Under the pieces are notes generated by a model that saw nothing but the letters and a program-made list of their open reading frames with translations, was not told the DNA's origin and ran no database searches. Source: Escherichia coli (GTDB lineage: Bacteria; Pseudomonadota; Gammaproteobacteria; Enterobacterales; Enterobacteriaceae). From it: a DNA stretch of 64,000 bases. Below are positions 47,468 to 48,928 of this stretch, one piece after another; positions within the stretch are counted from its first letter, which is position 1, and each line of letters opens with the position of its first letter. Where the stretch lies: NCBI RefSeq assembly GCF_048403405.1, contig NZ_CP183129.1; one strand, written 5' to 3'. Made by a program: the position numbers and the translations under genes.

Positions 47468-47903
47468 ATGAATTTATTGATTGTTTTTTGCTTTTATATT
47501 TCGGTTCTGCGTAGTAATAAAATAAGTGTATTTAAATTAATCACTATCACAACTGTCTTGATTGTATATGTATTCTGGCTAATAGCCGACAGTTTTACTG
47601 GCGTTGGGATAAATGATTCAGTTTATTTCCATATGTTAATGCCGCATGAGGGGGCATCGGTTGAAAATTTAACATATTATGGATTTCTGATTGTAAGCCT
47701 TGTTATTTCAATTTTCTTGATTGCTTATGTTTCTTGGAAAAAGAAGCATAATAGAGGATTAAGTAAAAATTACTCTTTTTACGTACTCTTCGCTATTGTA
47801 TTAGTTACTCCATTTATGCGTAATTTCCTGGGGTCAATTAACAATTTAATTTCCGAACAGTTTTCTACTGAAGATATAAGTAAAGAGTATGTAATCAATA
47901 GTA
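47468..47903 (+). pseudogene. OpgB/LtaS-like (sulfatase-family) phospho-substituent transferase, N-terminal membrane domain only, interrupted by IS1
   Basis: Four hydrophobic helices. ADSFTGVGINDSVYF closely resembles the SDYFTGDGINDAVLY motif I recall from the E. coli OpgB (MdoB) membrane domain. The reading frame runs into IS1, and the TGA stop is supplied by the IS1 end (aGG TGA). Confidence 0.6.
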
Positions 47904-47958
47904 GGTGATGCTGCCAACTTACTGATTTAGTGTATGATGGTGTTTTTGAGGTGCTCCA

Positions 47959-48234
47959 GTGGCTTCTGTTTCTATCAGCTGTCCCTCCTGTTCAGCTACT
48001 GACGGGGTGGTGCGTAACGGCAAAAGCACCGCCGGACATCAGCGCTATCTCTGCTCTCACTGCCGTAAAACATGGCAACTGCAGTTCACTTACACCGCTT
48101 CTCAACCCGGTACGCACCAGAAAATCATTGATATGGCCATGAATGGCGTTGGATGCCGGGCAACCGCCCGCATTATGGGCGTTGGCCTCAACACGATTTT
48201 CCGCCATTTAAAAAACTCAGGCCGCAGTCGGTAA
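47959..48234 (+). CDS. insA: IS1 InsA (transposition inhibitor / N-terminal part of InsAB' transposase)
   Basis: 91 aa. [43 protein letters not shown]... is the canonical InsA. Confidence 0.96.
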
Positions 48235-48656
48235 CCTCGCGCATACAGCCGGGCAGTGACGTCATCGTCTGCGCGGAAATGGACGAACAGTGGGGATACG
48301 TCGGGGCTAAATCGCGCCAGCGCTGGCTGTTTTACGCGTATGACAGGCTCCGGAAGACGGTTGTTGCGCACGTATTCGGTGAACGCACTATGGCGACGCT
48401 GGGGCGTCTTATGAGCCTGCTGTCACCCTTTGACGTGGTGATATGGATGACGGATGGCTGGCCGCTGTATGAATCCCGCCTGAAGGGAAAGCTGCACGTA
48501 ATCAGCAAGCGATATACGCAGCGAATTGAGCGGCATAACCTGAATCTGAGGCAGCACCTGGCACGGCTGGGACGGAAGTCGCTGTCGTTCTCAAAATCGG
48601 TGGAGCTGCATGACAAAGTCATCGGGCATTATCTGAACATAAAACACTATCAATAA
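48153..48656 (+). CDS. insB: IS1 insB' reading frame (expressed as InsAB' by -1 frameshift at TTAAAAAAC)
   Basis: 167-codon frame overlapping the insA 3' end, with the slippery A6C at 48210-48216. Confidence 0.93.
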
Positions 48657-48671
48657 GTTGGAGTCATTACC

Positions 48672-48928
48672 GGTTACGAGTAGTGGCATCTGGATTTGAT
48701 GTGTGTAACATTAATGAGTCGTTAATATTAGCTAGAGTTGGTGATAATATGTTGGCTAGGCGAAAAGGGCTGAGGTATATAAAAAGTGAATTCCAACTTT
48801 ATCGGCTAAAAGTTAAACTTGGTTTGCAGTCACATATATCTGGATTCTGCATTTTGTTAGTAAGAAGCATTCCGCGATTACTCCCTCTAAAGGTCTTAAA
48901 AATTATTTACCAATATATTCGGAAGTAA
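48672..48928 (+). other. Right-hand remnant of the IS1-disrupted gene (same phase as left part), ends at TAA 48926-48928
   Basis: The frame is open from the IS1 junction (RLRVVASGFDVCNINESLILARVGDNMLARRKGL...). It is in phase with the left fragment because 768 is divisible by 3. The ESL tripeptide and a following L-x-x-x-K-G-L pattern are reminiscent of the start of a sulfatase-type catalytic domain, but only about 85 codons remain. Confidence 0.4.

Follow-up and report, generated by a model that had tools for sequence, protein, structure and literature searches.

We found that the complete IS1 element beside gnd in a 64,000-nucleotide stretch of Escherichia coli DNA (hereafter the window) is, with a probability of roughly 90%, a chimeric, IS1-mediated joint where an O153/O178-type O-antigen gene cluster meets gnd. 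Judged by sequence comparison, its two flanks are remnants of two unrelated genes, the front of an OpgB-like gene on the left and the tail of an O37-type glycosyltransferase gene on the right. Where an intact IS1 lies between pieces of unrelated genes and has no target-site duplication, it marks an IS1-mediated rearrangement, and the locus was read accordingly. Both remnants are dead, because the sulfatase-type domain has been lost from one and the GT-A domain from the other. The scar is an ordinary, widely shared IS1 rearrangement that joins two pseudogene remnants.

The cluster is bordered on the left by galF (39465-40358) and on the right by gnd, the gene for 6-phosphogluconate dehydrogenase (49043-50449, plus strand). 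Its first five genes encode a family-2 glycosyltransferase (40575-41489), a 588-aa protein (41491-43257), a second family-2 glycosyltransferase (43261-44133), Wzy (44133-45310), and a family-4 glycosyltransferase (45261-46286). They are followed by the last intact gene of the cluster, that of the Wzx flippase (46267-47445, plus strand; an intact 392-aa ORF, Pfam Polysacc_synt, E 3e-8). Over 12.4 kb the region was 99.94% identical to that of E. coli SMS-3-5, with identical wzx genes. The wzy type of the window was present in 79 of 5,426 complete E. coli genomes, including a strain named CE-O153H30 (99.9% identical). The 588-aa gene product, labelled 'hypothetical protein' in RefSeq, matched the ribofuranosyl transferase structure 7SHG in the PDB (E 4e-14, residues 7-534), and the O153/O178 antigens contain ribofuranose (PMC7685785). 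We thus assign the cluster to the O153/O178 type from the wzy match, the strain name, and the ribofuranose gene content rather than from a reference O153 sequence. In a review, O153/O178 has one glycosyltransferase fewer than expected, probably because the 588-aa ribofuranosyl transferase is called hypothetical.

An O19 identity of the cluster was considered as well, SMS-3-5 being described as O19:H34. It was dropped because O19 needs L-rhamnose genes, which are absent here. By its gene content the SMS-3-5 cluster likewise appears to be of the O153/O178 type, without the rhamnose genes that the O19 structure requires.

The IS1 element is IS1B-like and occupies 47904-48671 on the plus strand. 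It has the features that define the family, namely a length of 768 bp, imperfect terminal inverted repeats of ~23 bp (IRL at 47904-47926 and IRR at 48649-48671, both canonical), and an A6C frameshift joining insA and insB'. The insA gene lies at 47959-48234, the -1 frameshift site (AAAAAAC) that joins the two frames at 48210-48216, and the insB frame extends to 48656. Both ends are canonical, with GGTGATGCTGCCAACTTACTGAT at the start and ATCAATAAGTTGGAGTCATTACC at the finish. The limits are shared with thousands of independent E. coli IS1 copies, which aligned at positions 437-1204 of the query 47468-49042, that is, at 47904-48671. Some IS1B-annotated copies elsewhere were 100% identical to the element across its full length. 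The right limit is independently supported by an uninterrupted gene elsewhere that is identical to the window from 48672 on. Inside the window this is the only IS1.

The 9 bp to the left of the element (tcaatagta) and the 9 bp to its right (ggttacgag) were unrelated at every offset and boundary shift, so that the 8-9-bp direct target duplication that a simple insertion leaves at both ends is absent from IS1 47904-48671. A sequence-only reading of this DNA had already recognized a complete 768-bp IS1 without a target-site duplication, and both observations held after the boundaries were checked.

The left flank (47468-47903, plus strand; 145 codons plus 1 nt) is a 5' remnant of a phosphoglycerol-transferase-I/OpgB-like gene and retains the membrane domain only. 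The stump belongs to the wzx operon and begins 22 nt past that gene. As it stands, its ORF (47468-47908, 146 aa) ends at a TGA within IS1 (47906-47908). It matched the NCBIfam profile PRK12363 for phosphoglycerol transferase I (E 1.5e-11, positions 12-147 of 703) and the OpgB profile PRK03776 (E 1e-7), and N-termini of phosphoglycerol transferase I/OpgB were all that the left flank matched. Its score on PRK12363 was 43.7 bits against a curated whole-protein cut-off of 572, and full-length relatives scored 467-581 bits. By these scores the left ORF is a gene remnant and no functional member of PRK12363 or PRK03776. The stump was collinear with relatives 588-861 aa long, sharing with them the motif D-x-F-T-G-x-G-x-x-D-[SA]-V-x-Y-H. 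The earlier proposal of an OpgB-like membrane domain in the N-terminal 145 aa was thus borne out. Of the four transmembrane helices proposed for it, three appeared as clear hydrophobic segments in a Kyte-Doolittle scan; the fourth corresponds to one short N-terminal segment and is plausible but not firm.

With phosphoglycerol transferase I/OpgB, an enzyme of the LtaS-type sulfatase fold, the stump therefore shares the N-terminal multi-helix membrane domain and the F-T-G-x-G-x-x-D-x-V-x-Y-H loop. It differs in having only 145 codons, in lacking PF00884, and in being ~30% identical to its nearest full-length relatives. In those relatives the PF00884 sulfatase domain starts at about residue 157, and IS1 cut the gene about 10 residues earlier. 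PF00884 was absent from both flanks in a Pfam check, in agreement with the missing sulfatase-type catalytic domain noted before, and about 590 codons of the OpgB-like gene were lost at IS1.

No intact orthologue of the OpgB-like gene was found by a word-indexed search of 5.8 billion protein clusters, which returned only truncated E. coli forms (146, 144, and 120 aa, plus one variant). An exhaustive phmmer search of 1.84 billion representatives found no full-length relative closer than ~30% identity, a scan of GTDB species-representative genomes gave zero tblastn-confirmed relatives, and a PDB sequence search with the stump returned noise only. These results suggest that an ancestor of the cluster encoded a phosphoglycerol-type modification enzyme, the intact form of which is missing from public data. 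It is improbable that the stump is translated and retained for a function, such as contact with Wzx or Wzy, or that it is the trace of an unsampled donor with a phosphoglycerol-decorated O153-like O unit.

The right flank has a different origin. Positions 48672-48928 (plus strand) are a 3' remnant and correspond to the last 257 nt of the gene with which O37-type clusters end, coding for an EpsE-like family-2 glycosyltransferase. All 257 nucleotides were identical to those of the intact gene (L001 6001-6257), and they encode residues 179-262 plus the stop of the 262-aa glycosyltransferase WP_222690469.1. The remnant is followed by a 114-nt spacer before gnd (48929-49042, plus strand), identical to the O37-type spacer. 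Altogether, 48672-49065 (394 bp) was 100% identical to and collinear with the O37-type 3' end, comprising the glycosyltransferase tail, the spacer, and the first 23 nt of gnd. The O37-type arrangement occurs in strain WP8-S17-ESBL-05, whose wzx and wzy genes are annotated as O37 family. To the left of 48672, the sequences of the window and the O37 strain were unrelated, and apart from the right end the O37 and O153-type clusters had no DNA similarity by blastn.

Compared to the terminal O37 glycosyltransferase, the right remnant shares the last 257 nt and the downstream spacer unchanged but lacks the first 532 nt. Thus 177 codons were lost at IS1, including the GT-A catalytic domain (PF00535, residues 5-125 of the intact protein), and the remnant itself gave zero Pfam matches. 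The peptide NINESLILARVGDNMLARRKGL, which the sequence-only reading had matched to OpgB, is in fact a motif found at the C-terminus in this subfamily of glycosyltransferases. The intact paralogue at 40575-41489 in the window, which is 28% identical, carries the equivalent NIDSVLLKYRINEQTLKRRRGL, and the two share the motif NI..L...R.....L.RR.GL.

The two flanks of IS1 are in the same reading phase. The sequence-only reading had taken them for a single OpgB/LtaS-like gene with nearly contiguous flanks, its ~85 codons right of IS1 continuing the left gene and its catalytic domain possibly lost by a separate deletion between ~48.8 kb and gnd. Apart from the phase, that account has in its favour that the left part is truly OpgB-like. 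The shared phase was confirmed, but the frame is not open across the element, being closed inside IS1 by the TGA at 47906 and then by many further stops. Moreover, the ~85 codons are residues 179-262 of a family-2 glycosyltransferase, collinear with the O37-type end into gnd, and the catalytic domain of full-length OpgB relatives comes directly after the IS1 cut point. The spacing to an ESL tripeptide, from which near-contiguity had been argued, is a coincidence, as the motif is also present in the intact glycosyltransferase paralogue at 40575-41489. Nothing was deleted toward gnd, as shown by the identity and collinearity of 48672-49065 with the intact O37-type end; all of the missing DNA lies at IS1 itself, and none was lost between 48.8 kb and gnd. 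The single-gene account is refuted by these results.

A simple IS1 insertion into a gene of ~230 aa, whether a duplication was later lost or the limits were misjudged, has nothing but the shared phase of the flanks to recommend it, and between unrelated genes that phase is a one-in-three coincidence. No protein spanning both flanks was found in the 5.8 billion clusters or the 1.84 billion representatives, and no uninterrupted sequence elsewhere was collinear with both. Misjudged limits are at odds with the thousands of IS1 copies, and with the O37 alignment as well, which together fix the ends of the element. Neither a ~230-aa intact orthologue nor a duplication after adjustment of the boundaries emerged, and the earlier view that the locus is more than a simple insertion stands; a simple insertion is extremely improbable.

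To determine how widely the joint is distributed, we surveyed the 5,426 complete E. coli genomes. The left flank was found in 78 of them and the right flank in 81, with the identical breakpoint in 78/81; the whole joint was recovered as a single contiguous match in 75. The joint is thus carried by 75-78 of the 5,426 genomes (~1.4%), which is every genome carrying the cluster. IS1 is multicopy in E. coli, with a median of 11 places per genome, and a collapsed or mis-joined IS1 repeat could in principle have produced a false joint during assembly. Such an artefact is scarcely credible given the identical joint in 75 independently assembled complete genomes. The intact glycosyltransferase gene was present in three complete genomes only, two O37 strains and 99COLEC.

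Outside IS1, the cluster differed by at most four substitutions among three strains whose gnd-his flanks were ~2-5% apart. From this near-identity despite divergent flanks it follows that the joint formed once and then travelled with the cluster, and that it is older than the dispersal of the cluster across E. coli lineages. The first 532 nt of the O37 glycosyltransferase gene were missing in 78/78 joint-bearing genomes, and a search for this 5' part as a reciprocal product did not find it elsewhere in any of them (one place per genome). With a joint older than the spread of the cluster, the reciprocal product is not expected in this genome. The identity of gnd to that of the O37 strain was 100% up to 49065 and fell to ~96-97% from 49066, a few codons into the gene, while O153-type strains diverged from one another only past ~49500 in gnd. 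These drops in identity indicate recombination breakpoints inside gnd that are later than the joint.

Later events at the locus were visible in sister genomes. In MRSN346647, 388 bp (window 47516-47903) have been lost beside the left end of IS1, which abuts 47515 (L006 3010-3075), leaving 16 codons of the OpgB-like stump and an unchanged right joint. This loss is a textbook IS1-adjacent deletion. A smaller loss of 27 bp (window 47877-47903), again abutting the left end of IS1, was found in the Logan assembly of the raw reads SRR28381709 (L005, about 264). On the contig of that assembly, the gene call P0004 read TGA as Trp, a readthrough suggesting that the gene caller used the wrong genetic code.

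The IS1 copy at the joint also varied in subtype. It was IS1B-type in the window and in EC488, with identical copies, and IS1A-type in SMS-3-5, CFSAN061763, and MRSN346647. Between the window and the copies in SMS-3-5 and CFSAN061763, six substitutions were clustered at 48165-48299 and the flanks were identical. On its sequence pattern, this clustering looks like conversion by another IS1 copy. Direct traces of both processes, adjacent deletion and IS1-by-IS1 exchange, are thus present at this locus.

The strain 99COLEC has a different IS1, likewise lacking a duplication, in the penultimate O37 glycosyltransferase gene, and almost nothing of the O37 cluster remains to the left of that element. 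From this IS1-bounded loss it follows that loss or replacement of the left part of the O37-type locus recurs. At this O37-derived locus (L004 6456-9333), nearly the whole O-antigen cluster has given way to a reverse-transcriptase fragment, an ISAs1 pseudogene, and the IS1, which abuts a truncated family-4 glycosyltransferase gene, and 99COLEC is probably a rough strain.

How the joint was founded can be told in two ways, which the joint sequence alone fits equally. We weakly prefer IS1-by-IS1 recombination, at about even odds. An O37-type chromosome would first have had an IS1 in its last glycosyltransferase gene. The O153/O178-type cluster would then have replaced the O37-type O-antigen genes to the left, with one crossover in or beyond galF and the other in an IS1 inserted in the incoming OpgB-like gene, which follows wzx. 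Recombination between two IS1 copies keeps one flank of each parent, and no target duplication would be left. The left side may later have been shortened further by IS1-adjacent deletions. The slight preference comes from the fact that this route explains in one step the O37 tail beside otherwise unrelated genes. The subtype swap at the joint with identical flanks and the recurrence in 99COLEC are further evidence for it.

For recombination between two IS1 copies, IS1 must have inserted twice, independently and in the same orientation. This route implies an O37 parent with IS1 at nt 532/533 of the glycosyltransferase gene and a GGTTACGAG duplication, as well as a donor whose OpgB-like gene would be complete but for an IS1 flanked by TCAATAGTA. 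Among the complete genomes, zero O37 genomes had IS1 at nt 532/533, and the protein collections and genome scans contained zero clusters with an intact or IS1-interrupted full-length OpgB-like gene.

Alternatively, a single IS1 may have produced the joint by adjacent deletion, a course of events that we regard as quite possible if somewhat less probable. The progenitor would have carried wzx, a full OpgB-like gene, possibly others, the O37-type glycosyltransferase gene, and gnd, with IS1 in the glycosyltransferase or the OpgB-like gene, and intramolecular transposition would have deleted the rest. One insertion suffices for this, IS1 is generally known to make adjacent deletions, and leftward losses from this very element, with the right joint unchanged, were observed in MRSN346647 (388 bp) and the Logan assembly (27 bp). 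However, this course needs an unobserved progenitor with O153-type genes beside an O37-type glycosyltransferase gene, itself the product of an earlier illegitimate event. With a 394-bp tail 100% identical to O37 and the other parts of the cluster unrelated, an O37 recipient, as in IS1-by-IS1 recombination, is simpler. The suggestion made from the sequence that either IS1 recombination or adjacent deletion was the cause is well supported, both by the missing duplication and by the traces of the two processes at the locus.

Classical IS1-mediated deletions are known from the gal region of E. coli K-12. IS1 is reportedly the classic maker of adjacent deletions since the work of Reif and Saedler in 1975. 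The K-12 gal deletions share with the present locus an intact, retained IS1, the loss of DNA at one of its ends, and the lack of a duplication, as seen in MRSN346647. In contrast to those deletions, the founding event here may be a deletion or an IS1-by-IS1 crossover, and the sequence fits both.

The O153/O178-type cluster corresponds to Gp11 among the O-antigen groups. For groups Gp14-Gp16, IS elements have been described as driving such gene replacement in O-antigen clusters (2015, PMC4379981). As here, the IS in that account marks the point where conserved cluster genes give way to a set of glycosyltransferase genes beside gnd that differs or has been deleted, and the resulting scar is of the same kind. 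The part of the paper that presents the case gives it for Gp14-16 only and does not mention the O153/O178-type cluster. Compared with Gp14-Gp16 as presented there, the right end can here be assigned to a named donor (O37-type), and the left remnant is OpgB-like and not a glycosyltransferase. In the count given in the review of Liu et al., mobile elements occur in 23 clusters and gene remnants in nine (PMC7685785).

A search of the literature found no description of these two remnants, and in RefSeq they are unannotated or the left one is called 'hypothetical protein'. The locus is a further example of the known IS-linked remodelling of O-antigen clusters. These findings will not surprise specialists and open no long-standing question. 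For an E. coli O-antigen cluster that is fairly common (~1.4% of complete genomes), they correct the gene model next to gnd and name the O37-type cluster as the source of the right-hand remnant. They also show in a clean case how IS1 can stitch parts of two O-antigen loci together, and sister genomes record the deletions and the exchange of IS1 subtype that came later.

Two minor observations concern the neighbouring genes. Compared to SMS-3-5, the wzy gene of the window has a 1-bp deletion (TTT to TT at 44834-44838), which splits it into ORFs at 44133-44849 and 44861-45310. Among the 79 genomes with that wzy, no 100% match to the window copy was found. Either the deletion is a sequencing error or the frameshift is real, in which case a semi-rough strain would be predicted. 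The wzx gene of SMS-3-5 and others is given in RefSeq as a C-terminally incomplete pseudogene plus a hypothetical protein. The sequence is one uninterrupted ORF of 392 codons (window 46267-47445; L003 3596-4774), and the split call looks like an annotation artefact.
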